Virus record (IMG/VR): IMGVR_UViG_3300005580_001063
Location: 1 to 51,611 of that record
Reading direction: 5' to 3' (one strand)
Length of the DNA stretch: 51,611 nt
Origin: a virus
Lineage: Duplodnaviria; Caudoviricetes
Position numbers and translations under genes: made by a program. Positions 1 to 51,611 of this stretch are shown here, in pieces (within the stretch, counting starts at the first letter, position 1; each line of letters opens with the position of its first letter). The notes under the pieces are model-generated. The model worked only from the letters and a program-made list of their open reading frames with translations, ran no database searches and was not told where the DNA came from.

Positions 1-1585
1 ATCTATATCCAGAAGAAGTATTATTTTCTCCAACTATAAAAATTCTTTCATTATAAGTTTGATTTCTTCTACCAATAATACTTGTTTCAAAACTATTTGC
101 AGAACCAGTATTATCTTTTCCTAGAATTATTATTTTTTCGCCACTATTTAAATTATTTGTTCCATAAACATCAGAATAATTTCCACTGCCATTGATTGTG
201 TTATTTCTTCCAAAAATATTTGACCAATTTCCTTGATAAGTAACATTTATATCTCTTCCTACTGCAACAATTGATGTACCAGTATAATTAGAATTTTTTC
301 CTGCAAGCCAATTACCAGTTCCAGATACATATATACATTCACCATAAATATCAGATGTATTTGCTGCTTGAATTTCATTTGTTCTTCCAGCTATATAATT
401 TCCACTCCCAATATTAATATAGTTCCAATCTCCAAGAGTATAATTTTCTACTGCAACTGGTTTGATTCTATTGTATTCTCCAAGAATAAAATTCGCATCA
501 CCAGAGCCAGTATTGCTTTGACCATATATTTGATTTGAATTTCCTGCATTACGATTTAATCTACCATAAACGTCAACTTCGATTCCAGTTATATCATTTT
601 CTAGTCCATAGACAGAAACTTTTTCTAGAGCGCCAGAATAAACTCTTACAGTATTATATCTTCCATATGCCAAAGTACTTTTGCCACTGATCGAATTATA
701 ATCTCCATAAACTAAAGAATTTGCTCCTGCCTCAGTTTCATTTCCTATATAATTATTTTGACCAACAACAAAAGATCCAGTTGAAAATTTTTCAGCAATA
801 TTATAATTGCCAAGAATTGTTACTTTGTTTGTATTAGTTAATTTATTATTATGGCCATGAACATGAAGATCATCTCCTGTAACCATACTATCTTCACCAT
901 ATATAGATATATCTTTTCCAGAAACTGAATTCTGTTGACCATAAATTCTAATTTGTGTTCCAGTCGCAACATTTCCTGTACCGTAAATTTTATTATCATT
1001 TCCCGTTACTTGATTAAATAATCCAAATATTGGTGAAAACTCACCACTTACTGTATTGCCTATTCCAAAAATTTGAATATTTTGTCCAGTTAATTTATTA
1101 TTCTGTCCAATACTTATATTGTTTTTACCTACTGTATTATTAAGATGACCTAATACAACGTTATATTCTCCAGTTGTATAATTAAACATGCCTAAATTAA
1201 TGTTATTTAAGCCTGAGACATTGCTAGTATGACCTAATTGCATACTTCCGCCTTCTAACCCAGATATCACTCCACTTCCATTTAATATAAGATTTCCGTC
1301 ATATACTCTTAATACGCATGCGCCAGGATGAGGAAGATTAGCGTCATCTCCATGACCACTTATCAAAAGGTTCCCACTGATTAATCTAAATCTACCATAT
1401 TGATTATTTAAATCATCTAATATATAAGGATCTGTATTATGTACTACAAAATATTGATCATTTACCATTCTATAAACGTTATCAATTGTTACTTTATAAT
1501 TAACTCCATCTTGAACTATAGGAAAGATATCTCCAGTTCTTGGATACGGATTTTCAAATAACTGAGATATTTTCTTATTTGCCAT
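1..1585 (-). CDS. Tail fibre/adhesin with YadA-head-like ~14-aa beta-roll repeats (runs off the left window edge; not in the ORF track)
   Basis: Manual translation from ATG 1585 gives MANKKISQLFENPYPRTGDIFPIVQDG..., then periodic GxxNxxxGxxxxxI units (GQNNKLTGQNIQIF, GIGNTVSGEFSPIF, GTGNVATGTQIRIY). SD-like AAGGA upstream. Confidence 0.7.
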   Translation of the reverse strand, partial: MANKKISQLFENPYPRTGDIFPIVQDGVNYKVTIDNVYRMVNDQYFVVHNTDPYILDDLNNQYGRFRLISGNLLISGHGDDANLPHPGACVLRVYDGNLILNGSGVISGLEGGSMQLGHTSNVSGLNNINLGMFNYTTGEYNVVLGHLNNTVGKNNISIGQNNKLTGQNIQIFGIGNTVSGEFSPIFGLFNQVTGNDNKIYGTGNVATGTQIRIYGQQNSVSGKDISIYGEDSMVTGDDLHVHGHNNKLTNTNKVTILGNYNIAEKFSTGSFVVGQNNYIGNETEAGANSLVYGDYNSISGKSTLAYGRYNTVRVYSGALEKVSVYGLENDITGIEVDVYGRLNRNAGNSNQIYGQSNTGSGDANFILGEYNRIKPVAVENYTLGDWNYINIGSGNYIAGRTNEIQAANTSDIYGECIYVSGTGNWLAGKNSNYTGTSIVAVGRDINVTYQGNWSNIFGRNNTINGSGNYSDVYGTNNLNSGEKIIILGKDNTGSANSFETSIIGRRNQTYNERIFIVGENNTSSGYR

Positions 1586-1624
1586 TAAAGTTTCCTTTTA
1601 CCTATAATAAATTTACACATAAAA

Positions 1625-4399
1625 TTAATATAATACTGAAAGATTACTAACTAAAAGCTCTCCGTCTTCTTGTAGAAGGTAGTTGCCATTTGAAGAGCCG
1701 TCATCTTCAGCTAGTAAAAAGTCTTCTATTTTTTCAATTCCAAGAAGTCCAGACATTTGCATCCCGCGAGTATAATCTTCTGGATCAATTTCTGTAGAAA
1801 AATTAAATCTCACATTTTGTCTAGATCCTATAGAATTTGAAGATGATATTCCTTCAAATTTACAATTAAAAAATTCACAACCATATACATTTAAAAACCT
1901 TTTTTCAAAATTACTTGATTGAGTTCGCTTTTCAAATTCAAAATTTGCATCATAATTACATATATTTTTACAATTTATTAATAAATTATAATCTTTATCT
2001 TCTCGTATAAGTTTAGATAAATCACTATAAGCTTGTTCGCCTGGAATGAGATCAATTCCTACGTTAATAATTAATGGTAAATTAATTTCTCTATCTAATG
2101 GTAGTTTATAACCTATCGCTTCCATTTTTTCTCTATCAAAATTAAAAGAAAATTCATAACCTTGTATACGAATATCATTTAAATTTAATCCATATCCAGA
2201 ACTATTTATATTAAACGTTAAATCTCCTGGAGATAAAGCAGATACAAGATTTTTTGAATTTAATTCATTTGGGATGTTAAATTTAATTCCAGTATTTGTA
2301 ACGTATGTTTTTGGATTAACATAAGGGGTATTTGCTCCACTACCACTCATTTGAAATAGCATGTTTTCTGCTGCATAACTGACATTAACTTCTACAAAAT
2401 TTCCAACAGAAGCTTTTTGTAAATAAGAAGAAAGATAACAATTTCCAAATCCAATCGTTCTAGTTCCTGTGGATTTTGGATCTGCACTGCGATCTATATA
2501 ATTTTGATAATCTGTTTTATTAAAATCTTCTATTAGTTTTTCATTATGGTCTACGTTTTCTTCTGCAAGAGCAACAAATATATTTCTTTTATCTCTAGTA
2601 TTAGATGGCCAAAATGGATCAGTACTCAAACACCCATATTCAGTAAAATCAGCTGGATCAACAATTAATTCATTATTTATCATATCATAATTAACATCAT
2701 CTTCTCCCCAGCCAGTTATTTCTTTTCTTTGTGGTGAGACATAAGCTATTGAATTTTTATAACTTGTATCTATAAATAAAACATTTTCAAAACTTCCAAC
2801 AGCTGTTGAATTCCAATTTCCAGTAAACATTCCTTGAGAATCATTGTAAACAATATTTTCATTTATTTGACCAACGTTATTTAATCCCCAACCAGTAATT
2901 TTATTATTTTCTAGCAAGGCTAAGGTGTGAAACCATCCAGCATGTATTGACTTAACTCCAGTTAACTTTCCTACAGGAGTAGTACTCCAATTTCCAGTAA
3001 AAATACCACTAGAATTATTTTTGTTTTTAATTCCTGCAATTTGACCATCATCATTCCATCCCCAACCAGTTACTTTTCCATTATTAAGTAAAGCAAAAGA
3101 ATGTAGATATCCAGCAGTAATTTGTTTTACTCCTGTCAAATAATTTCCACTTAACGATTGTCCATATTCATTGTCTCCCCAACCAGTTACTTTTTCATTA
3201 TTTAAGATGCATAAAGAATGATGTCCACCAGCAGAAATAGATCGTCCGCCAGTTAAAAAATTACCATTCAAAGACTGTCCATATTGATTGTCTCCCCAAC
3301 CAGTAATTGTGCCATCATCAAGCAATGCAAGAGAATGATATGCTCCAGCGCTAATATTATTAACGCCAGTAATATTGCTTACTGGAGTATTACTCCAATT
3401 TCCAGTAAATAAATAATTAGTATCATTATATCCAGTTGTTCCAACCGCTTGACCCTCATCATTTGCTCCCCAACCAGTAATAATACCACCAGACAATAAA
3501 ACTAAATTATGTAAATAATTTGTACTTATTTTTTTAACTCCAGTTAATTTTCCCACAATTGTATTCGACCAATTTCCAGTAAATTCTCCAGAAGGATTAT
3601 TATCGGTTACATAATTTACTAATTGTCCTTCATTGTTATCTCCCCAACCAGTAATCATACCCGATTCACCAAGAACAAACGAATGATAGAAACCAGCCGC
3701 AGCATCTGTAACTCCTCTGCCATGCATAGTTATTAAAGGATTTAAATTTTTTCCAACATAATATGGAATATAATTTGAATAAACATTTGGATTTGGAGAA
3801 GGCGTTGGCTGAATCATATTAAAACATGGAGATTTAACTTGTATTCCTTCTCCACGGGATGATTTGATTGGATCAGGTTTTGTATTATCTCTATTTAAAA
3901 ATCCAGAAAATAAAAATAATGAATTATTCACATCTGTTCTGAAAAAATATTTATCTCCAGTTACAGGATAATCTAATCTAGGATAATTTACATTAAACCC
4001 CATTCTCATCTCATTTTTTAAAGAAGCTAATATATAAGAAAAATTTAAATTAATTTCAGGTTTTGTTAAATATATTCTATCAATTGTTGCGGCTTTACCC
4101 ATTTGATTAATATTTGATCTATCTGAAGATATTTCGTAATTAAAACTTTGAATTCTATCTAATCTTTTTAAAAGATTATGATTTCTTGGAAATGTATTTT
4201 GATTTTTATCTTTTGGAATTATTGCGTGAATAAGGGCTGGATTTGGGCTTTTATATTGAAAATCTTCATAAGTGATATGAGGAAAATTTTCATGGTTGTT
4301 ATTTAAACCTCCAGAATAATTAATAAAATGGTTTCCGCTAGCTGGAGATGGGCCAATGAAAATATCTTGAATATTATAAATTATTTGATTACGCGCCAT
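1625..4399 (-). CDS. Virion structural protein (tail-tube-like halves) with inserted RCC1/BLIP-II beta-propeller repeats
   Basis: Repeated ISAGxxHSLALL..GxxTGWGDNxxGQ units in the middle. N- and C-terminal regions resemble each other (RIQSFNYEISSDR / RIQGYEFSFNFDR). C-terminal LLQEDG motif. Confidence 0.6.
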   Translation of the reverse strand: MARNQIIYNIQDIFIGPSPASGNHFINYSGGLNNNHENFPHITYEDFQYKSPNPALIHAIIPKDKNQNTFPRNHNLLKRLDRIQSFNYEISSDRSNINQMGKAATIDRIYLTKPEINLNFSYILASLKNEMRMGFNVNYPRLDYPVTGDKYFFRTDVNNSLFLFSGFLNRDNTKPDPIKSSRGEGIQVKSPCFNMIQPTPSPNPNVYSNYIPYYVGKNLNPLITMHGRGVTDAAAGFYHSFVLGESGMITGWGDNNEGQLVNYVTDNNPSGEFTGNWSNTIVGKLTGVKKISTNYLHNLVLLSGGIITGWGANDEGQAVGTTGYNDTNYLFTGNWSNTPVSNITGVNNISAGAYHSLALLDDGTITGWGDNQYGQSLNGNFLTGGRSISAGGHHSLCILNNEKVTGWGDNEYGQSLSGNYLTGVKQITAGYLHSFALLNNGKVTGWGWNDDGQIAGIKNKNNSSGIFTGNWSTTPVGKLTGVKSIHAGWFHTLALLENNKITGWGLNNVGQINENIVYNDSQGMFTGNWNSTAVGSFENVLFIDTSYKNSIAYVSPQRKEITGWGEDDVNYDMINNELIVDPADFTEYGCLSTDPFWPSNTRDKRNIFVALAEENVDHNEKLIEDFNKTDYQNYIDRSADPKSTGTRTIGFGNCYLSSYLQKASVGNFVEVNVSYAAENMLFQMSGSGANTPYVNPKTYVTNTGIKFNIPNELNSKNLVSALSPGDLTFNINSSGYGLNLNDIRIQGYEFSFNFDREKMEAIGYKLPLDREINLPLIINVGIDLIPGEQAYSDLSKLIREDKDYNLLINCKNICNYDANFEFEKRTQSSNFEKRFLNVYGCEFFNCKFEGISSSNSIGSRQNVRFNFSTEIDPEDYTRGMQMSGLLGIEKIEDFLLAEDDGSSNGNYLLQEDGELLVSNLSVLY

Positions 4400-27826: not shown

Positions 27827-28952
27827 TATCCGATATTACCATCTTTTCTACTAGTTTGTCAAATGATATTTTTGGAGTCCATCCTAGTTCCTGCCTAGCT
27901 CTGCTTGAGTCTCCAAGCAGTAATTCGACTTCTGCTGGTCTGTAGAATTTAGGATTGATTTGAACAAGTATCTTGTTATCTTCTGTAGTATATATAATAT
28001 GTTCATTTTCCCCAATCCATTTTCCATTTATTCCAACCACATTAAAAGCTTTTTGTACAAATTCTTTGATTGTATGAGTCTCGTTAGAAGAAAATACATA
28101 ATCATCTGGGGTGCCATTATAATTTTTATTGTATACATCTTGATTTAGCATCATCCAAACTCCATCTACAAAATCTTCTGCATCGCTCCAATCTCTCTTG
28201 GCTTCTATATTCCCTAACTCTAGTGGGATAAAATCTTGATTATTTTTTATAGCCGAATGGATTCTAGCTATGTTTTTAGTTATTTTTCTTGTTACAAATT
28301 CTTCTCCTCTACGAATTCCTTCGTGATTAAACAACCAACCTTGTATAGCATAAAGATTATAAGATTCTTTGTATACTTTTATGAGTTGTCTTGATGCAGC
28401 TTTGCTTGCTCCATAAGGACTTCTTGGGCGTAATGGATGTTTTTCATCTTGAGGAGTATAGATCACATTTCCAAATTCTTCACTTGATCCAGCTTGATAC
28501 AGTCTGCATGATGGTTTATAAAGTCTTATTGCCTCTAGTATATCAAGTACAGCTGTAGAATTTGTTTGCCAAGTTTGACGAGCAAAATCCCAACTACTAG
28601 CAACAAAGCTTTGAGCCGCAAAATTAATAAAATAATCTGGTTGAAGCTTTTCTACTGTTCTTGATATTGCATGAGAATCAGTTAAATCAAAATTAATTAA
28701 ATAAAATCTATCAGATTTAATATGTTTAATGTTTTCGTGATTATATACGCTTAATCTTCTAACTCCTCCAAATACTAAATAATCGGTATTTTTTAATAAA
28801 AAATCCGCCATATGACTTCCATCTTGACCAGTAACACCAGTAATGACTACTGTTTTTCTATTATTGATTAACTTGCTAGCATCTTCAATGTTTAGGATAT
28901 TTGCGGTATCTATTTTTTTACCATAATAAGTCTCTTTAAAATTTTGACTCAT
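27807..28952 (-). CDS. gmd: GDP-mannose 4,6-dehydratase
   Basis: ITGVTGQDGS, AAQSFV, PRSPYGASK, LFNHE, FVTRKIT and YRPAEV motifs. Confidence 0.95.
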   Translation of the reverse strand: MSQNFKETYYGKKIDTANILNIEDASKLINNRKTVVITGVTGQDGSHMADFLLKNTDYLVFGGVRRLSVYNHENIKHIKSDRFYLINFDLTDSHAISRTVEKLQPDYFINFAAQSFVASSWDFARQTWQTNSTAVLDILEAIRLYKPSCRLYQAGSSEEFGNVIYTPQDEKHPLRPRSPYGASKAASRQLIKVYKESYNLYAIQGWLFNHEGIRRGEEFVTRKITKNIARIHSAIKNNQDFIPLELGNIEAKRDWSDAEDFVDGVWMMLNQDVYNKNYNGTPDDYVFSSNETHTIKEFVQKAFNVVGINGKWIGENEHIIYTTEDNKILVQINPKFYRPAEVELLLGDSSRARQELGWTPKISFDKLVEKMVISDIENYKP

Positions 28953-35828: not shown

Positions 35829-36678
35829 CTATGACTTCCCAAAACTTTTTGGAAGCATTTTTACAATTTTCTTTAAATTTTTCCTGACCCACTTTGGACA
35901 TTTCAATTAAAGATCCAATTATATTAGGAGAATTTGATATCATTTTCATTCCACACATTGAAGCTTCTGCGACTGATCTACAAAAGGGTTCTGGAATAAC
36001 TGGACTATAATAAACAATATCGTATTGATTATATACTTTATGCATATTTTCATAAGGAATTGGCCCAAGATATTCTATGTTTGGTATATTTCTAGCAAGA
36101 AAATCAAAAGTTTTTTGTCCCCATCCAGCTATTACAAATTTCATTTCTGGGTGCGCTAATACGAATTCAAAAAATGCAAATGTTCCTTTTAATTCATGCA
36201 TATAACCAACATATAAAACTTTATCTTCTCTTTTCCGCTCTTCATCTTTAAATAAATCTGTATCTATTGGATCATATACTATATGAACTCCATTAAAAAT
36301 ATCTCCATACATTTTTATAAATATTTCGTGATGAAAATCAGTTAAAAATATTGTTTTTTTACATGATTTAAAAAGTTTTTCTCTATGTTCTTTCGATAAA
36401 TATCTATTTGAATCATGCTCTAATCTAATATGATTTTTATGTTTTGCTATTTTATTTATGATACTATTATCTGAACCGTATATTGCTTCTAAATTAGATG
36501 AAATTAATATATCATATTGATCAAAATCTTCAATTTTAAAATTGAAATTATAATTTGCTTCAAGTATTGAATAGCCCAGCTCTCTTCCTTTTTGGATAAT
36601 TATATCATTGCTTCTTTGTGCTCCTCCTGGAGCATGTGATAAATTATAATCTGAAATAAAAAGTATTTTTTTGCTCAT
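35821..36678 (-). CDS. GT4 glycosyltransferase
   Basis: GGAQRS, YVG...LKG and EPFCRSVAEA motifs. Confidence 0.85.
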   Translation of the reverse strand: MSKKILFISDYNLSHAPGGAQRSNDIIIQKGRELGYSILEANYNFNFKIEDFDQYDILISSNLEAIYGSDNSIINKIAKHKNHIRLEHDSNRYLSKEHREKLFKSCKKTIFLTDFHHEIFIKMYGDIFNGVHIVYDPIDTDLFKDEERKREDKVLYVGYMHELKGTFAFFEFVLAHPEMKFVIAGWGQKTFDFLARNIPNIEYLGPIPYENMHKVYNQYDIVYYSPVIPEPFCRSVAEASMCGMKMISNSPNIIGSLIEMSKVGQEKFKENCKNASKKFWEVIDD

Positions 36679-36689
36679 TACTATAGATA

Positions 36690-36757
36690 ATAGTAACTTA
36701 TTATTATAAGAATGTCAATTAATTTTATTTGACAAAATATATTTATTGCCTTAATAT
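36690..36757. promoter_or_regulatory. Divergent sigma70 promoter pair
   Basis: Minus strand: TTGACA(36718-36713)-N17-TACTAT toward the glycan operon. Plus strand: TTGACA(36729)-N17-TAATAT(36752) toward the structured RNA. Confidence 0.75.
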
Positions 36758-36763
36758 AGTACG

Positions 36764-37100
36764 ACATCTCGCTGAAAAGCGAAAAGGTTCGCCGTACTCC
36801 TTAAAATGGTGAGTTAGATTAGTTCTTAACGTCAGGCAACGCTACTAGCTTGCGACCTGAGAAACCAGAAGCAATTCTGGGAGTGTAGGTGAAAGAGCTA
36901 ACACGCGATGGATGATCCTACCGACATCCGATAAGTGTTAGGGGCCGAAAGGCTTATGGACTCAATTGGGAAATTGAACTAACGGCTCAAGCATGCTTGT
37001 GGTAAAACACAGAGAAAGCTATGCTTTGTAGGAGCTCATTGGGAAATATTTATTAAGAACAGATATAAGACCAGTACACTTCTTTAACAAGATATGAAGT
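36764..37100 (+). ncRNA. Unassigned large structured RNA or structured 5' leader of nrdAB
   Basis: GC-enriched island with no ORF of 60 aa or more, its own promoter, about ten helices, four GNRA-capped hairpins and a candidate pseudoknot (see findings). Confidence 0.75.
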
Positions 37101-37178
37101 TATTAACACTAATTTGGTTATTTTTCTTTTATAAAAATTAAAAATGCTGTAAACTACTCTTTACATCACAAACAAAAA

Positions 37179-39437
37179 ATGAGCAAAAATTTTACTATTA
37201 AGAAAAGAAACGGTGCAACTGAAAAGTTTGATGTAGAAAAAATTAATAAAGTAATACATTGGGCAATTGATGGTTATAGCGGGGTTAGTTTGACGGATAT
37301 TGAAATTAACGCTAAAATAAACATACATGATGGCATAACAAGTAAAGAGATACACAACTTATTGATTGAAAGCGCAGCAAACCTTATTTCTATTGAAAAA
37401 CCAAATTATCAATTTGTTGCTGGAAGACTTCTAAATTATCAATTAAGAAAAGACGTTTGGAAGGGTAAGCATGCTCCAAGATTATCAGAGTTTTTAAATC
37501 AAAGCATTAAGAATAAAATTTATGATCCTATAATTTTAGAAAATTATTCAGAAGATGAGATAAATAAAATTGGTGAATTCATTGATCACGAAAGAGATTT
37601 CATTTTTACATATGCTGGCATAAAACAGCTTTGCGATAAATATTTAATTAAGAATAGAACCACAAATCAAATTCATGAAACTCCACAATTTGCCTATATA
37701 TTAATAGCTGCATATTCTTTTGCTAAATATCCTGCAGAAATTAGACTTTCTTATGTTAGAAAATTTTATGATGCTATTAGTAAGCATAAGATTAATCTCC
37801 CAACTCCAATAATGGCTGGAGTCAGAACCAGCAGTAGAAATTACGCTAGTTGCTGTCTAATAGGAGTTGACGATACCAAAGAAAGTATTACAGCTAGTGC
37901 AACTGCCGTAAGTATGGCAACAGCCAATAGATGTGGAATTGGAATAGATGTAAGTAAAATTAGAGCAGTTGGATCACCAATAAAGAATGGAGAAGTAGTG
38001 CACACTGGTTTAATTCCATTTTTAAAGATTTACGAAAGTAGTGTTAAAGCTTGGCAACAGAACGGATTAAGAGGAGGAAGTGCTACCTGCAATATTCAAT
38101 GGTGGCATTATGAAATTGAAGATATAATAGTATTGAAGAACAACGCTGGCACAGATGATAACAGAGTTCGAAAATTAGATTATACCATTGGGATGAGTAA
38201 GCTATTTTATGATAGAGTTTTAAAAGATGAAGATATTATTTTATTTAACAATGCTGAAGTTCCAGAGTTATATGAAGCATGGGGAACTAAAGACTTCGAT
38301 AAAGTATATAAAGAATGTGAATCTAAAAAATTAAAAATTAAAAAGAAAATCTCTGCCCGTAAATTGTTTTCTCTTATAATAAAAGAACGAGTTGAAACTG
38401 GACGTATTTATATACTTAATGTTGATCATGCAAATAATCATGGTGCTTGGCTAGACAAAGTTACAATGAGCAACCTTTGTACTGAGGTCATTCATCCGAC
38501 TATTCCATTAAATGATTATCATGATAAAAATGGCGAAATTGGGATGTGTATTCTTTCGGCAGTGAATATGCTAGAAATTAAAAACTGGCTAGATCTTGAA
38601 AAGACCTGCGATCTTATCGTAAGATTTCTTGATGAAATCATAGACATTCAAGATTACTTTAATATCGCTGCTGAAAATTTTGCTAAAAAACGTAGAAGCC
38701 TTGGCGTAGGAATAACTAATCTTGCGGCTTTTCTTGCTAAAAATGAATTAAAATATAGTTCAGATAAGTCATTAGTAGTTATTGATGAGTGGATGGAGCA
38801 TTTTCAGTATTATCTTTTAAAGAGCAGTCTTGAATTAGCTAAAGAAAAAGGCAAGTGTGAAAAATTTGAAAGTACAAAATACTCTAAAGGCATATTGCCA
38901 ATAGACACATATAAAGATAAAGTAGATGAATTAGTTAAAAGAAAACTAACACTTGATTGGGAGAAATTAAGAAAAGATGTAAAAGAATTTGGACTTAGAC
39001 ATTCTACGTTATCTTCTTGTATGCCTTGTGAAAGTAGTTCGGTAATTCAATGCTCAACTAATGGAGTTGAACCTATCCGTAGTCTTATGACTTACAAAAC
39101 TAGTAAAATGGGTAAACTTCCAGTCATGGTTCCAGGAATTGGAAAATACCATGATAATTATGAATTAGCTTATGATCTCAAAGACAATATTGGATTATTA
39201 AAAATTAACGCTGTTATTCAAAAATACATTGACATGGCTATATCAACTAATGTATACTACAATTATAATCATTATGAAGATAATATACTACCAGATTCCA
39301 AAGTCATGAAAGAGATAATGTATGCATATAGCCTTGGATTGATAAGCTTATATTATAACAATACAGATGATGGAGACAAAGAACAATCTATGACGCAAAA
39401 AGAAGATGATTGCGCTAGCGGAGCGTGTAAACTATAA
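37179..39437 (+). CDS. nrdA: Ribonucleotide reductase class Ia alpha subunit with ATP cone
   Basis: IKKRNG cone, ETPQF, PTP, SCC, SNLCTE and C-terminal CASGAC motifs. Confidence 0.97.
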   Translation: MSKNFTIKKRNGATEKFDVEKINKVIHWAIDGYSGVSLTDIEINAKINIHDGITSKEIHNLLIESAANLISIEKPNYQFVAGRLLNYQLRKDVWKGKHAPRLSEFLNQSIKNKIYDPIILENYSEDEINKIGEFIDHERDFIFTYAGIKQLCDKYLIKNRTTNQIHETPQFAYILIAAYSFAKYPAEIRLSYVRKFYDAISKHKINLPTPIMAGVRTSSRNYASCCLIGVDDTKESITASATAVSMATANRCGIGIDVSKIRAVGSPIKNGEVVHTGLIPFLKIYESSVKAWQQNGLRGGSATCNIQWWHYEIEDIIVLKNNAGTDDNRVRKLDYTIGMSKLFYDRVLKDEDIILFNNAEVPELYEAWGTKDFDKVYKECESKKLKIKKKISARKLFSLIIKERVETGRIYILNVDHANNHGAWLDKVTMSNLCTEVIHPTIPLNDYHDKNGEIGMCILSAVNMLEIKNWLDLEKTCDLIVRFLDEIIDIQDYFNIAAENFAKKRRSLGVGITNLAAFLAKNELKYSSDKSLVVIDEWMEHFQYYLLKSSLELAKEKGKCEKFESTKYSKGILPIDTYKDKVDELVKRKLTLDWEKLRKDVKEFGLRHSTLSSCMPCESSSVIQCSTNGVEPIRSLMTYKTSKMGKLPVMVPGIGKYHDNYELAYDLKDNIGLLKINAVIQKYIDMAISTNVYYNYNHYEDNILPDSKVMKEIMYAYSLGLISLYYNNTDDGDKEQSMTQKEDDCASGACKL

Positions 39438-39441
39438 CTCT

Positions 39442-40506
39442 ATGAAAACAGTTTTAAATTTAAAAAATGTAGATTATACTAAACAGCCTTTGTTTCTTGG
39501 AGAAGATCTAAACTTACAAAGATATGATAGATTCAAGTATCCAATATTTTTTGAATTATTTAAAAAGCAAAATGAAAACTTTTGGTGGCCTCATGAAATT
39601 GCTTTAGGAAAAGATAGAAGTGATTATCAGAACTTAACTGATACCGAAAGATTTGTATTTGATAGTAATTTAAGATTTCAAACTCTTGGAGATTCGATGT
39701 TATCCAGAAGCATACATAGTCTAAAAGATTATGTAAGCAATCCAGAACTTGAAATATGCATGAATACTTGGGCTCAATTTGAAGGTATTCATAGTTATAG
39801 CTACTCTTATCTCCTTAACAATGTCTACCCAGATCCAACTAAATTCTTTGATAGTATAATGGAAGACAAAGAAATTACAAGTCGCGCCGAACTAATTAGA
39901 AATAATTTTGATAAAATTCTTGGAGATGACGAAAAGAAAGATGTTAAACAAAAGATTTTTGATGCTATCCTTTCTATTAATGTTATGGAAGGACTTGTAT
40001 TTTACGTTTCTTTCGCTTGTTCTTTCTATTTTGGATATCGTGGTAAGATGGAAGGTAATTCTAAAATCATTAAATTCATTCAAAGAGATGAAGCTTTGCA
40101 TTTTGCTACCTCTCAAAATCTTTTGAAAATTCTTCGTGATGAAGATAAAGAAGGTTTTACGTCTATTGTAAAGAAAAATGAAGATAAGATATACGCTTTC
40201 TATGAACAAGCCGCAAAGAATGAAAGTGAATGGGCTCAGTATCTATTCAGTAATGGCAGTTTACTTGGATTAAATTCTGACGTTTTAGATGGGTACTCTA
40301 AGTGGCTTTGCGATAGTAGGCTAAGAAGCTTGGGTTACAAGAAGATATTCAATCAAAAAGATAATCCTATTGCTGGATGGCATGATAGCTATTTAGACAG
40401 TAGCAAAGTACAAGTTGCACCCCAAGAAACAGAGATATCATCATATAAAATTGGAGCAAGGAAGACTGATATATCTGATGATGACTTTTCTAATTTAAAA
40501 TTATAA
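39442..40506 (+). CDS. nrdB: Ribonucleotide reductase class Ia beta subunit
   Basis: FWWPHE, EGIHSYSY, EG..FYVSF, RDEALH and VAPQETE motifs. Start moved to ATG 39442 (MKTVL). Confidence 0.97.
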   Translation: MKTVLNLKNVDYTKQPLFLGEDLNLQRYDRFKYPIFFELFKKQNENFWWPHEIALGKDRSDYQNLTDTERFVFDSNLRFQTLGDSMLSRSIHSLKDYVSNPELEICMNTWAQFEGIHSYSYSYLLNNVYPDPTKFFDSIMEDKEITSRAELIRNNFDKILGDDEKKDVKQKIFDAILSINVMEGLVFYVSFACSFYFGYRGKMEGNSKIIKFIQRDEALHFATSQNLLKILRDEDKEGFTSIVKKNEDKIYAFYEQAAKNESEWAQYLFSNGSLLGLNSDVLDGYSKWLCDSRLRSLGYKKIFNQKDNPIAGWHDSYLDSSKVQVAPQETEISSYKIGARKTDISDDDFSNLKL

Positions 40507-45602: not shown

Positions 45603-46709
45603 ATGAAATATGATTTTAAAGAAGCTATTACATATGATGATATATCCTTATTGCCAAATTTTTCAGATATTACATCCAGAAAAGAAGTCAGCACAATAAC
45701 AAAAATTTCTAAAAATAAATATATAGATTTTCCAATTGTATTATCTCCCATGGATACAGTTTCATCTGTAAAATCTTGCATAAAAATAAATCAAATTGGT
45801 GGGGCTGGAGTAATACATAGATTCATGCCAATAGAATCTCAAAAAAATAAAGCAAAACGAATTAAAAATGAAAGTAATTTCTGTATAACAGCCATAGGTT
45901 TGAAAGATGCAAAAAATAGGATACAAGAGTTATCTGAAGTAACAGACATTTTCTTTTTGGACACAGCAAACGGTTTATCTTCTAGAGTAGAAGATTTTCT
46001 TATTGAATACAAGCAGTCATCTTATAAGCAGGATATTATAGTAGGAAATACCTTAACAAAACAAAGTGTTTATAGATTAGCTAATCTTGAAGCAGATGGA
46101 TTCAGACATTTAATTGGTCCAGGAAGCATGTGTTTGACTCAAATTAAGACTGGGATAGGATGCCCAAGTGTGACAGGATTAGGGTACGCATGGAAAGCTG
46201 TTAGAAATTTTCAATTAGCAAATTTAGATTATTTTAGGCATGAAAATACTAGCGAAGAAAATCGTCCAAGTATATTAGCTGATGGAGGCATAAGATATCC
46301 ACGAGATTTAGTAAAAGCTATTGCATCTGGAGCAGATTCTGTTATTTGCGGTAGAATATTTGCTGGATTAGCAGATGTAGTTGATGAAGAAAATATTTTT
46401 GAAAAAGATGGTAAAAGATTCGCAAAATACAGAGGAATGGCAAGTCAAGACGTAGTAGAAGATTACGATTTATATGATGGAAACAGAAAAAATTTATTTG
46501 TCGAAGGAGACGTTACAGTTGTACCTTTAATAGAAGATAAGACTCTAGAAGATATAGTCTATGATTTTATAAATGGTTTGAGGAGTGCGATGAGTTATCT
46601 AGGTATGCGTTCTATAGAGGAAATGCGCGGAGGTATCTGGAACGATAAAATAACAATAGTGAGAAACAGTCCAAACAGCATGTATGAAAGTTTTGCCCAT
46701 GGAAAATGA
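45603..46709 (+). CDS. IMPDH/GMP reductase family enzyme without CBS domains (GMP reductase favoured)
   Basis: TYDDI.LLP, SPMDTV, IGPGSMCLT, ADGGIR, YRGMAS and GLRSAMSY motifs. No Arg-Tyr flap dyad. Confidence 0.85.
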   Translation: MKYDFKEAITYDDISLLPNFSDITSRKEVSTITKISKNKYIDFPIVLSPMDTVSSVKSCIKINQIGGAGVIHRFMPIESQKNKAKRIKNESNFCITAIGLKDAKNRIQELSEVTDIFFLDTANGLSSRVEDFLIEYKQSSYKQDIIVGNTLTKQSVYRLANLEADGFRHLIGPGSMCLTQIKTGIGCPSVTGLGYAWKAVRNFQLANLDYFRHENTSEENRPSILADGGIRYPRDLVKAIASGADSVICGRIFAGLADVVDEENIFEKDGKRFAKYRGMASQDVVEDYDLYDGNRKNLFVEGDVTVVPLIEDKTLEDIVYDFINGLRSAMSYLGMRSIEEMRGGIWNDKITIVRNSPNSMYESFAHGK

Positions 46710-47451
46710 TTGGCAAATCCAAGCGAAGAAGCATGCAATTCAAAACGTAAATGAAGAATGCTGTGGCCTAGTGTTACAAAAAGATGATATTTTATATTAT
46801 CTTGGGGCCAAAAATGTAGCTGCAAATAAAAAAAATAACTTTGCAGTAGATCCTCACGCTTATTTACATGCATCTAGAAGTGGGAAAATTATTGCATGTT
46901 TTCATTCTCATATTAAAAATAATTCATTTTCTTGGATAGACATAAATAATAGTTTTAAAGTGAATCTACCATACTATTTGTATAATATTAAAAAAGATAA
47001 TATTAGTTGTTTTTCTCCAGTTGAATATGAACAATATAAAAAATATTTATATTTTAAATTTAATTATGGTAAAAATGATTGCTTTTCATTGATAAGAAAT
47101 TTTTACAAAAATGAATTAGATATTGAAATGTCAGACCCAGCGCAAGATAGAGCTACTAAATACATGCCGCCAGAAAATTGTCTGATTTGGCATAGGCAAG
47201 AATACAAAGAATGGGCAAATCAAAACGACCTTGTAGATATGGATGTAAATGGTATTTCTCAATTAAAGAAGCATGATATATTAGTTTTTGATGGGTTTAA
47301 TAAAGGTGAACCAAGTCATGGTATGATATATATAGGAAATGAATTAGTTCTACATCATCCGTTTAACGACATATCTAAAATAGAATCAATTAGAAAAGCA
47401 CATTTCAAATTTTTAAAATTCATAATAAGGCATAAAAACGTAAATATATGA
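46699..47451 (+). CDS. JAB/MPN + NlpC/P60 protein (lambda gpK-like), copy 1
   Basis: EECCGL, HSH..S..D, NDCFSL, SHGMIY and LHH motifs. Likely start at MENDW. Confidence 0.8.
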   Translation: MENDWQIQAKKHAIQNVNEECCGLVLQKDDILYYLGAKNVAANKKNNFAVDPHAYLHASRSGKIIACFHSHIKNNSFSWIDINNSFKVNLPYYLYNIKKDNISCFSPVEYEQYKKYLYFKFNYGKNDCFSLIRNFYKNELDIEMSDPAQDRATKYMPPENCLIWHRQEYKEWANQNDLVDMDVNGISQLKKHDILVFDGFNKGEPSHGMIYIGNELVLHHPFNDISKIESIRKAHFKFLKFIIRHKNVNI

Positions 47452-48200
47452 ATAAATTTTTAATAAAAAATACTCTCAAGAAAATAAAAGCATATTCCCT
47501 CTTGAATCACAAAGAAGAAATCTGTGGGTTAATTTATAAAAACAATGAAAAATATGAAATTTATCCATGCGATAATATAGCAATTAATAAAAAAATTAAT
47601 TTTGTTATAAAACCTATTGATGCAAAAATTTGCGAAAAAAAAGGAGAAATAATTGCATGCTACCATTCTCATATAAAAAATGGAGGATTTTCACATGACG
47701 ATATAAGTTCTAGTCTAGAAATAAAATTACCTTATATTGTTTATAATATTATTGAAAATAAATTTTACTTTTTTGATCCTATAAAATATTTTCATTACAA
47801 AAAATACATCAATTTAAATTATCAATATGGAGTAAATGATTGTTGTGCGATTTTTGTAAGATATTCTAATGATCAATTAAAAATTCCAATTACAGATCCA
47901 GAAGATGGAAGGTTTCAAAGGCCAGATTATAATTCGTACTCGTCTTGGTCATATGAATGTAGAAAAGATTGGATGGACAAAGTTGGCCTTAAGAAAATTA
48001 ATCCAAAATCTATTAAGGATTTAAAAGTCAATGATATATTAGTTTTTAAAAGTCAAGATGAAGCAACGCCGACTTCTGGAGCGATATTATTAGAAAATAA
48101 ATTAATTCTTCACCAAAGAAATCATCAACCCTCTAGAATAGAATCTTTTAGAAAAGCCCATTTCAGAATGTTATTATACGCTGGAAGATATGAGGAATAA
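47448..48200 (+). CDS. JAB/MPN + NlpC/P60 protein, copy 2
   Basis: EEICGL, HSH..S..D and NDCCAI motifs. The catalytic His position reads TSGAIL. Confidence 0.8.
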   Translation: MNKFLIKNTLKKIKAYSLLNHKEEICGLIYKNNEKYEIYPCDNIAINKKINFVIKPIDAKICEKKGEIIACYHSHIKNGGFSHDDISSSLEIKLPYIVYNIIENKFYFFDPIKYFHYKKYINLNYQYGVNDCCAIFVRYSNDQLKIPITDPEDGRFQRPDYNSYSSWSYECRKDWMDKVGLKKINPKSIKDLKVNDILVFKSQDEATPTSGAILLENKLILHQRNHQPSRIESFRKAHFRMLLYAGRYEE

Positions 48201-50442: not shown

Positions 50443-51180
50443 ATGTCATCTTGTCCATTCGGTTTTTCTTCAGAAAATAAACCTAAAAATAACCAAAATT
50501 CTTTAAAACAATCAATTGTACAATTATATTTAATGGAACAATACGATAAAAATCTGCTACCTCAAAAACCTGATATTTATTCAAATTGGTGGGAGCAAGA
50601 TCGAAAAACAAAAAATCATGCAAAATTTTGTATGCCATTATTAATGGCAAATGGATTGGGATATGATATTCTATCTCCTGCTACATTTGAAATAGAATGG
50701 GACGGAGTCGAGGGGAACGATTCAAAAGTGTCTATATTAGAAAAATCTTCTCATGGAATCGTAGATAATCATTCAGCAACAGGAAGTTTTACAGTTCAAG
50801 CACATTTTATACCAAAAACTGAAAAAGGATACTACATTTATATTAAAGGTATACCAAATATTAGACGACCATTTTCAGTTATGGAAGGACTTATTGAAGC
50901 TTGGTGGAATCCAGCTAATTTTGGAATCGTTTGCTTATGTAATCATCCTGGAAAATTTACTGTTAAACAAGGAGAGCCATTAGCAAGAATGATACTTTTA
51001 CATGAAGATGCCATTAAAGTTTCATTAGAAATAAAAGATAATCAATTTGAAGTCTTTCAAAGAAAAGAGTTTTTAGAAAAAAGAGATAAACAAACGGGGC
51101 ACGTTTTAGATTATTTTAAAGGACTTTATCCAAATGGTGAAAAAGCAGATTATCATATCAAACCTAATATTTATAATTAA
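50443..51180 (+). CDS. DUF6065-family protein
   Basis: FCMPLLMANGLGYDILSP..WDG, GIPN, EGLIEAWW and KQGEP motifs. Confidence 0.7.
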   Translation: MSSCPFGFSSENKPKNNQNSLKQSIVQLYLMEQYDKNLLPQKPDIYSNWWEQDRKTKNHAKFCMPLLMANGLGYDILSPATFEIEWDGVEGNDSKVSILEKSSHGIVDNHSATGSFTVQAHFIPKTEKGYYIYIKGIPNIRRPFSVMEGLIEAWWNPANFGIVCLCNHPGKFTVKQGEPLARMILLHEDAIKVSLEIKDNQFEVFQRKEFLEKRDKQTGHVLDYFKGLYPNGEKADYHIKPNIYN

Positions 51181-51182
51181 TT

Positions 51183-51611
51183 ATGAAACCAAGATACGAA
51201 AGACCAAAAGAAAAATTAAAAGTTGATCACAATGTAAAAGACGAAATAAAAGATCTTATCAAAGACACCTTGCTGATCATAACAAATAATGATTATGATA
51301 GAAAAACAGCAGAAAATTTAATTGAATCTTTAAATGGTAATAAAAAAAGAGATTGGTTTGTAGATCATGCTTATTTTTGCTTACCATTAATGATTGCAAA
51401 TCAACATGGATTCATTGTTAAAGCAGCGTATGATTTTTCTGTTTTTTGGGATGGAGGGGGTTATCTTCCAAACGTAATAATCAAACATGAAGAACAAAAT
51501 ATCCAAGGGCAAATCATTTCGTCCCATTTCGGTATGGGCACATTTACTATACAAAATCCATGGATGGTAAGAACGCCAAATGGAGTAAATACTTTAATTA
51601 TGAATCCTCCA
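51183..51611 (+). CDS. Second DUF6065-family protein (truncated by the window end)
   Basis: Manual translation: MKPRYERP...RDWFVDHAYFCLPLMIANQHG...WDGG...SSHFGMG...RTPNGVN. Confidence 0.7.
   Translation, partial: MKPRYERPKEKLKVDHNVKDEIKDLIKDTLLIITNNDYDRKTAENLIESLNGNKKRDWFVDHAYFCLPLMIANQHGFIVKAAYDFSVFWDGGGYLPNVIIKHEEQNIQGQIISSHFGMGTFTIQNPWMVRTPNGVNTLIMNPP

Follow-up and report, generated by a model that had tools for sequence, protein, structure and literature searches.

The window analyzed here, i.e., the whole stretch of 51,611 nt taken from IMG/VR virus record IMGVR_UViG_3300005580_001063, is an AT-rich part of a large uncultured phage, with a GC content of ∼27–31% over most of its length. 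Between a glycosyltransferase gene (− strand, ending at 36678) and nrdA lies a gap of 500 nt, within which the GC content rises to 0.46 (positions 36800–36999), compared with 0.19–0.30 in the flanks; the GC-rich intergenic island ahead of nrdA pointed out in an initial annotation of this DNA was thereby confirmed. As judged from sequence comparison, the gap contains an RNA gene predicted to be a transcription unit of its own, the product of which, ∼285 nt long, folds compactly (Table 1) and matches no catalogued family. The near-consensus promoter preceding it, of the sigma-70 type and also recognized initially, holds its ground, its TTGACA being retained in 22 of 23 aligned relatives. In a 23-copy alignment of the RNA (A1), a conserved start, ACAU, follows the −10 hexamer after ∼7 nt, and conservation stops at ...CTCATTGGGAAGT. 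The 5′ end given here is a prediction (7 nt past the −10 hexamer), and the 3′ end was set where conservation stops, i.e., at the second of two boxes described below. No terminator-like site was found between 36400 and 37400. When 15 other phage contigs were searched with a pattern consisting of the promoter followed by ACATA, it flagged the RNA gene in 12; among the three unmatched contigs, G015 nevertheless has the RNA, and an extra match to the pattern in G003 is not the RNA.

Table 1. Features of the RNA gene and the nrdAB genes, with positions numbered as in the window.
Feature	Position	Strand	Remarks
Promoter of the sigma-70 type, TTGACA(AAA)-N17-TAATAT	36729–36757	+	10/12 matches
RNA gene, ∼285 nt	36764–37047	+	Predicted ends; covariance-model match at 36758–37052, 319 bits
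H1 hairpin, TCGCT-GAAA-AGCGA	36769–36782	+	3/5 pairs change on both sides; poor alignment, 58.8% of cells paired
Closing helix, 5′ strand AGGTTC	36785–36790	+	Partner GGAGCT at 37031–37036 (5′ half of box 2), 100% paired
H2 hairpin, GCCGT...ATGGT, A-rich loop	36791–36810	+	3/5 pairs compensatory, 100% paired
Long-range 5′ strands, GAGTT and TTAGTTC	36811–36825	+	Partners at 36976–36988; 7/12 pairs compensatory, 100% paired
H3 hairpin, invariant core GGCAACGCT...AGCTTGCGACC	36832–36860	+	Outer stem covaries; two inner registers possible
H4 hairpin, CCAGAA-GCAA-TTCTGG	36865–36880	+	3/6 pairs compensatory; longer in other types
Pseudoknot, 5′ strand GTAGG	36885–36889	+	Pairs with CCTAC at 36917–36921, the loop of the inner hairpin
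H5, CTAACAC/GTGTTAG, around H6, GATG/CATC, and the pseudoknot loop	36898–36941	+	Curated and cross-type pair counts
H7 hairpin, GGCC-GAAA-GGCT	36943–36954	+	GAAA loop invariant within the window's type
Box 1, GGACTCA-A-TTGGGAAAT	36958–36974	+	Between H7 and the long-range 3′ strands
Long-range 3′ strands, GAACTAA and GGCTC	36976–36988	+	Same two helices as the long-range 5′ strands
H8 (variable hairpin) and H9 (AAAGC-TAT-GCTTT)	36996–37027	+	Curated and cross-type pair counts
Box 2, GGAGCTCA-TTGGGAAAT	37031–37047	+	3′ end of the conserved RNA
nrdA	37179–39437		
nrdB	39406–40506		

Covariation carries the case for a conserved fold. The counts of nrdA loci given below are based on the best 80 of the 210 loci confirmed in a search of IMG/VR for relatives of nrdA; blastn found the RNA in 22 of these 80. 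When the 68 pairs of a curated structure, among them those of the pseudoknot, were counted over the 21 distinct relatives in A1, 96.8% of the cells were paired and 23 pairs showed compensatory changes, whereas controls in which the 3′ partners had been displaced by one to three columns reached only 31–49% and 1–4, respectively. None of 500 shuffles matched the observed values in four of five measures; the count of further pair types was matched by 499 of 500. For A1, RNAalifold proposed 66 pairs, and compensatory changes were seen in 19 of these. Searches with nhmmer and with R1, a covariance model derived from A1, uncovered four more sequence types that share this architecture; R1 aligned them over their full length at E = 1e-8 to 1e-17. 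In a cross-type alignment of 34 sequences, 94.6% of the cells were paired and 47 of 64 pairs were compensatory, although this alignment was fitted to the model and, therefore, leans toward it. The architecture common to all types is a multi-helix junction, closed by long-range helices and containing a covarying pseudoknot. The folding energy, which had been proposed as a check on RNA function, came out at −93.6 kcal/mol for the + strand (z = −2.64), but z was −3.51 for the − strand; since the latter folds as well or better, folding energy alone is weak evidence. That the + strand is the functional one is indicated by the many G–U pairs, which would become A–C on the opposite strand.

Most of the helices that had initially been folded by hand stood up to this comparison. 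The hairpins TCGCT/AGCGA, CCAGAA/TTCTGG, and GGCC/GGCT were recovered by RNAalifold and by the curated pair counts; the GNRA caps assigned to such hairpins fared less well, the loops not being GNRA in every relative. TCAGG/CCTGA, the outer stem of H3, was paired in 94 of 94 cells, with changes from A–U to G–C, and both of the inner pairing registers of H3 covary, leaving no basis to prefer one. CTAACAC/GTGTTAG around GATG/CATC and the two long-range helices were likewise upheld (Table 1). The proposed pseudoknot GTAGG/CCTAC proved to covary across sequence types, in which five complementary combinations occur (GUAGGU/[A,U]CCUAC, GUAGCU/AGCUAC, GUGGCU/AGCCAC, GUGGAU/AUCCAC, and GUAGUU/AACUAC), with one mismatch in each of four sequences. 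Three of the helices did not survive. AGCAT/ATGCT was paired in only 49 of 105 cells (47%), the family keeping AAAGC/GCTTT instead; CTCCT/AGGAG was paired in 76 of 104 cells (73%), with C–A at one pair in 10 of 21 rows, and the real closing helix is AGGTTC/GGAGCT; TCAATT-GGGA-AATTGA was paired in 111 of 126 cells (88%) in the window's type, yet lies within box 1 and is lost in other types. H4 differs between types: in types D and E (L053, L038, L066, and others) it is extended, and its apex carries a conserved UGUACAUNAUAUGGCU containing the palindrome UGUACA, whereas in the window's type the apex is a plain 4-nt loop without a palindrome. The UGUACA apex could be a kissing-loop contact restricted to types D and E.

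The RNA did not correspond to any of the Rfam families tested. Rfam 15 (4227 models, including those for cobalamin riboswitches, transfer-messenger RNA [tmRNA], RNase P, group I and II introns, GOLLD, ROOL, HEARO, pRNA, and 6S) gave no match across the whole window at gathering thresholds; at E ≤ 10, the only match between 36600 and 37250 was an unrelated small nucleolar RNA model at 36614–36695 on the − strand, outside the RNA. The copy from a relative did not match any model at E ≤ 0.1, while the tmRNA next to it scored 111.8 bits. ARAGORN detected neither transfer RNA (tRNA) nor tmRNA genes in the window. Thus, a cobalamin riboswitch, tmRNA, RNase P, and an intron, the signatures of which the initial annotation had not seen either, are ruled out by Rfam and ARAGORN; as for tmRNA, related phages have a true one as a separate gene. 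These genes, in G001 (94722–95112, corresponding to L269:14722–15112 on the − strand) and G006 (L273:14627–15014 on the + strand), belong to RF00023 (111.8 bits), with the ARAGORN tag AKTAKYKGHISARASLVEMTASVA*, and the phages also carry tRNA genes for Thr, Asn, Ser, and Asp; in G001, the 5′ end of the tmRNA lies ∼260 nt from the promoter of the RNA gene, with divergent transcription. A type III antitoxin (ToxI-like) was rejected because tandem repeats of ∼34–45 nt are lacking (the sole direct repeat is 10 nt long, its copies 73 nt apart, with the intervening sequence unrepeated) and because the flanking genes are those for the glycosyltransferase and nrdA, not a toxin gene. The lack of an Rfam match, the strong covariation, and the conserved promoter of its own all support the earlier suggestion of a novel phage noncoding RNA, and a literature search found no description of it.

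The RNA is present in most of the checked contigs of a group of uncultured freshwater (lake) phages, never in more than one copy per contig. The twin-box pattern of the window's type was found in 24 viral contigs of IMG/VR, and a core pattern independent of the boxes in 28 contigs from JGI metagenomes. Among 185,579 prokaryote species, represented by one genome each, 11 pattern matches were obtained, none of which is the RNA (none was full-length, and all were unrelated by eye); 50,697 records of cultured phages yielded no blastn match for two of the RNA types. A pattern for the H3 core hit 98 loci in viral contigs, but according to nhmmer those outside the phage group match the pattern only, and the 12 of these that were inspected comprised 11 coding sequences of GC-rich phages and one unrelated noncoding stretch. 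The nearest cultured NrdA proteins, those of the Pelagibacter phages Mosig and HTVC008M, are 52–53% identical to that of the window, and the nearest cultured DnaE is at most 32% identical, which indicates a lineage without a cultured close relative in the collection searched. Neither HTVC008M nor Mosig has the RNA ahead of nrdA.

Two boxes of the same design are embedded in the RNA, 65–75 nt apart across the RNAs: each consists of GGA, one to three bases, UCA (UUA in type E), and then a purine-rich core ending in GU. Both are single-stranded in the predicted fold. In the window, the cores (ATTGGGAAAT at 36965–36974 and at 37038–37047) form an exact direct repeat of 10 nt, 73 nt apart. Scoring of the boxes began from 88 unique sequences, 30 of which were skipped by the pattern; in 57 of the 58 scored, the 9-nt cores of the two boxes were identical, and the sole exception is an extraction error. 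About 10 core variants were altered jointly in both boxes, including the single-base variants TTGGAAAGT, ACTGGGAAGT, and TTGGGAATT. The variants encountered in type A, the window's type, were UUGGGAAGU, UUGGGAAAU, UUGGGAAAAU, UUGGAAAGU, CUGGGAAGU, UUGGGAAUU, and UUGGGAAGA; type C had GGGAAAAAGU, and types B, D, and E had AAGAAAAGU. A C-to-U change in UCA was, likewise, found in both boxes simultaneously, and despite their differing sequence, the cores are purine-rich in every type. Box 1 is invariably one base longer than box 2, after UCA. As the extra base is always in box 1, simple homogenization of two repeats is unlikely. Boxes that are identical and yet change represent an unusual constraint, which points to a mechanism involving a complementary strand or a shared partner. 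Small open reading frames beginning in the boxes were considered as well and dropped because they are not kept across types.

The 5′ halves of the boxes compete for one strand. AGGTTC, which forms the closing helix with box 2, has an alternative partner in the 5′ half of box 1 (36958–36962), with 91% of the cells paired over 34 sequences; the two pairings are mutually exclusive, and that with box 1 would create a second pseudoknot. This strand (AGKUUU across the family) is the only complement to the boxes inside the RNA, being able to pair with the GGA..CU part of either one, which allows two alternative closures. The alternative pairing may reflect a conformational switch or be a mere by-product of the likeness of the boxes.

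The position of the RNA bears directly on the proposal, also made initially, that it is a nucleotide-sensing leader of nrdAB. In the window and in 27 of the 80 related loci, the RNA does lie directly upstream of nrdA on the same strand, and as no terminator-like site separates the two, read-through into nrdA would be possible. A constant place 5′ of nrdA, as expected of a cis-acting leader, was not observed, however: the RNA was present within 3 kb of nrdA in 54 of the 80 loci, of which these 27 are only half. In 25 loci, it lies ∼2 kb past the downstream end of nrdB, is encoded on the opposite strand, and converges on the nrdB operon; in L054, it lies 1.25 kb upstream of nrdA with another gene in between; and in one of the 54, the copy is cut off at the start of the locus. 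Eight contigs without the RNA near nrdA contain one copy each 4–10 kb away, which cmsearch assigned to type D (E = 1e-9 to 1e-11). The notion of an optional module was, thus, rejected, as eight of nine apparently RNA-less contigs carry one copy 4–10 kb from nrdA. In G005, which represents a more distant clade (NrdA identity 78%, 57% complete), cmsearch gave no match in 134 kb. Upstream of nrdA itself, a motif (TACAC ... TGTTAATAA ... TTTTCTTTT ... TGTAA..TTACA) is conserved in loci with and without the RNA next to it, and it occurs once in the window. There, the region 37076–37165 contains TACAC, TTATTAACA, TTTTTCTTTT (37121–37130), and an inverted repeat, TGTAAA (37148–37153)...TTTACA (37160–37165), just before the nrdA start codon; this is possibly an nrdA-specific operator or promoter, and a T4-like middle promoter was dropped because the replisome is not T4-like. 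A riboswitch expression platform, be it a terminator or a helix masking the ribosome-binding site, was not found, in that terminator-like sites are lacking in 36400–37400 and the alternative pairing that had been taken as a hint at a switch, although present in the window (16 nt, 81% complementary), has a 3′ arm (37053–37068) that is not conserved beyond the closest relatives. With strand and position so variable, no terminator-like site, an nrdA motif independent of the RNA, and no match to a riboswitch family, a cis-acting nrdAB leader or riboswitch is very improbable; the position data have largely refuted it.

What we tentatively favor, at somewhat less than an even chance, is that the RNA is not an nrdAB leader but a trans-acting scaffold to which one partner binds twice. 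Early in infection, the gene would be transcribed by the RNA polymerase of the host; the folded core would act as the scaffold, with box 1 displayed within the junction and box 2 forming the 3′ tail; and both boxes would engage one and the same sequence-specific partner. As the cores remain purine-rich while their sequence drifts, the most likely partner would be a pyrimidine-rich nucleic acid, bound by base pairing and encoded elsewhere than beside the RNA. No protein gene traveling with the RNA was found among its neighbors. Several observations speak against such a scaffold. Inside the RNA, the purine cores have no complement, and in the 51.6-kb window no complement was better than those of shuffled boxes. 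In five contigs with type B or D RNAs (87–134 kb), the only exact complement was the antisense strand of the RNA gene itself, and the one recurrent site with a single mismatch reads, on its messenger RNA, in the same direction as the box. Part of the likeness of the boxes could be explained alone by their 5′ halves sharing one 5′ strand partner, and their joint change is at least as simply explained by pairing of a box with the DNA template of the other. One candidate partner, the H1 loop CCCAAUU, which is complementary to the boxes in some type A RNAs, was rejected because type D has the same loop but different boxes.

The DNA template of the other box is the basis of an explanation in cis, which we regard as unlikely but as a serious competitor: like ColE1 RNA II, the RNA would form an R-loop or primer at or near the replication origin, box 1 RNA meeting box 2 template DNA or the reverse. 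A stable hybrid of purine RNA and pyrimidine DNA would, with the same low likelihood, be nucleated and later processed into a primer. Box identity makes the RNA of box 1 complementary to the template of box 2, so that joint change needs no third partner; only this identity is required, and it was observed in all but one of the scored sequences, with cores that consist of purines in all types. The fact that conservation ends at box 2 without a terminator-like site behind it, the single copy per contig, and the strong host-type promoter fit as well, as does the presence in the window of genes for a DnaE-type polymerase, DnaB, and DnaG (besides a RecA-like protein and ThyX), while no replication initiator was recognized among its proteins. 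The RNA gene lies at the minimum of the cumulative GC skew in five of nine genomes: within 0.5 kb of it and of the main switch in gene orientation in the window, G006, G002, and G003, and at a local minimum in G001. In G004, the distance is 2.2 kb, but in G015, G011, and G012, it is 4.7–8.5 kb, and as the skew tracks gene orientation in these genomes, it does not by itself locate an origin. Moreover, the RNA converges on the nrdB operon in the loci where it lies downstream of nrdB, its pseudoknot and tetraloops exceed what known primer RNAs need, and the contigs contain neither iterons nor additional box copies. In its full form, i.e., a new class of phage RNA whose twin purine boxes seize the template strand of their own gene and start replication of this lake-phage lineage, which has a bacterial-type replisome, through an R-loop, the proposal seems slightly more doubtful still. 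Also unlikely, and placed just behind it, is a protein decoy or ribonucleoprotein scaffold in the style of CsrB/RsmZ or 6S: an RNA-binding protein, from the host or the phage, would attach as two copies or as a dimer to the boxes and to a partial third copy of them located in the H2 loop. Each box opens with an invariant GGA that has U or A before it and UCA after it; the loop of H2 is similar to a box start (ACUCC in RNAs of the window's type and AGUCAAA in those of types B and D); and the strong early expression predicted here would suit host takeover. A protein-binding site, however, does not explain joint single-base changes of the core in ∼10 variants, there are two or three sites compared with many in the Csr/Rsm sponges, and a conserved neighboring protein gene is lacking. 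Less probable again is that the RNA is self-contained, acting as a ribozyme or assembling with itself as the “ornate” RNAs ROOL and GOLLD do; the boxes would then be processing sites or intermolecular contacts. The invariant GAAA loop, the pseudoknot, and the multi-way junction are hallmarks of tertiary structure, the RNA is phage-encoded like GOLLD and ROOL, and the H4 apex of types D and E is palindromic. Two reports describe GOLLD and ROOL RNAs as homo-oligomers or cages (PMC12286853, PMC12515178). The RNA studied here, however, has no internal complement to its box cores, lacks the palindromic apex in the window's type, matches no ribozyme family in Rfam, and, at ∼285–330 nt, is half the size of ROOL or less.

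Apart from the RNA gene, nrdAB, and the replication genes, the window codes for a long series of sugar-modifying enzymes and glycosyltransferases, for enzymes of nucleotide metabolism, and for a sigma-like protein. A second exact promoter match (TTGACAAA-N16-TAATAT; 0.17 expected by chance) is present at 27833–27862 on the − strand, ahead of a leftward operon of sugar-nucleotide and glycosyltransferase genes, and is likely another early promoter. Three further regions (2–4399 on the − strand, 46684–48200 and 50443–51611 on the + strand) encode a 528-amino acid protein with an ice-binding-like beta roll and a 924-amino acid protein with RCC1 repeats, which are possibly fiber or surface proteins; a pair of adjacent JAB-domain proteins, one of them with an NlpC/P60 domain too; and a pair of adjacent DUF6065 proteins.

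An RNA that falls outside all 4227 catalogued families is, thus, carried by most of the checked contigs of an abundant group of uncultured freshwater phages. Few large RNAs covary to this extent, and earlier cases proved to be ribozymes, riboswitches, cores of ribonucleoproteins, or self-assembling cages. If the RNA primes replication, it would represent a new way for a phage to begin DNA synthesis. A decoy role, in turn, would lead to a host factor that these phages have to neutralize.

Among known systems, GOLLD (RF02032) and ROOL (RF03087) resemble this RNA in being borne by phages or prophages, highly structured, separately transcribed, and noncoding. They differ in that their models do not match it, in size and architecture, and in that it gives no sign of self-assembly (no internal box complement, and a palindrome only in types D and E); twin boxes that change jointly are, to our knowledge, not a feature of GOLLD or ROOL. 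In ColE1 RNA II, an upstream G-rich segment of the RNA pairs with downstream C-rich template DNA. The two have in common a folded transcript from a constitutive host-type promoter, an upstream purine-rich segment that is repeated downstream, and the lack of a terminator; in contrast to ColE1, the present system is a phage and not a plasmid, there is no antisense partner like RNA I, the RNA contains a pseudoknot and tetraloops, and it lies at the skew minimum in only five or six of nine genomes. With the CsrB/RsmZ sponges, it shares repeated single-stranded GGA motifs on a folded RNA, but here there are only two or three of these, conservation extends 13–17 nt past GGA, and both copies change jointly. 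The pRNA of phi29 (RF00044) belongs to another phage group, whereas the replisome here is of the DnaE type; its model does not match, and no complementary loop pair that could form a ring was found in the present RNA. What both have in common is that they are phage RNAs with a strong early promoter, the fold of which is kept while the sequence drifts.

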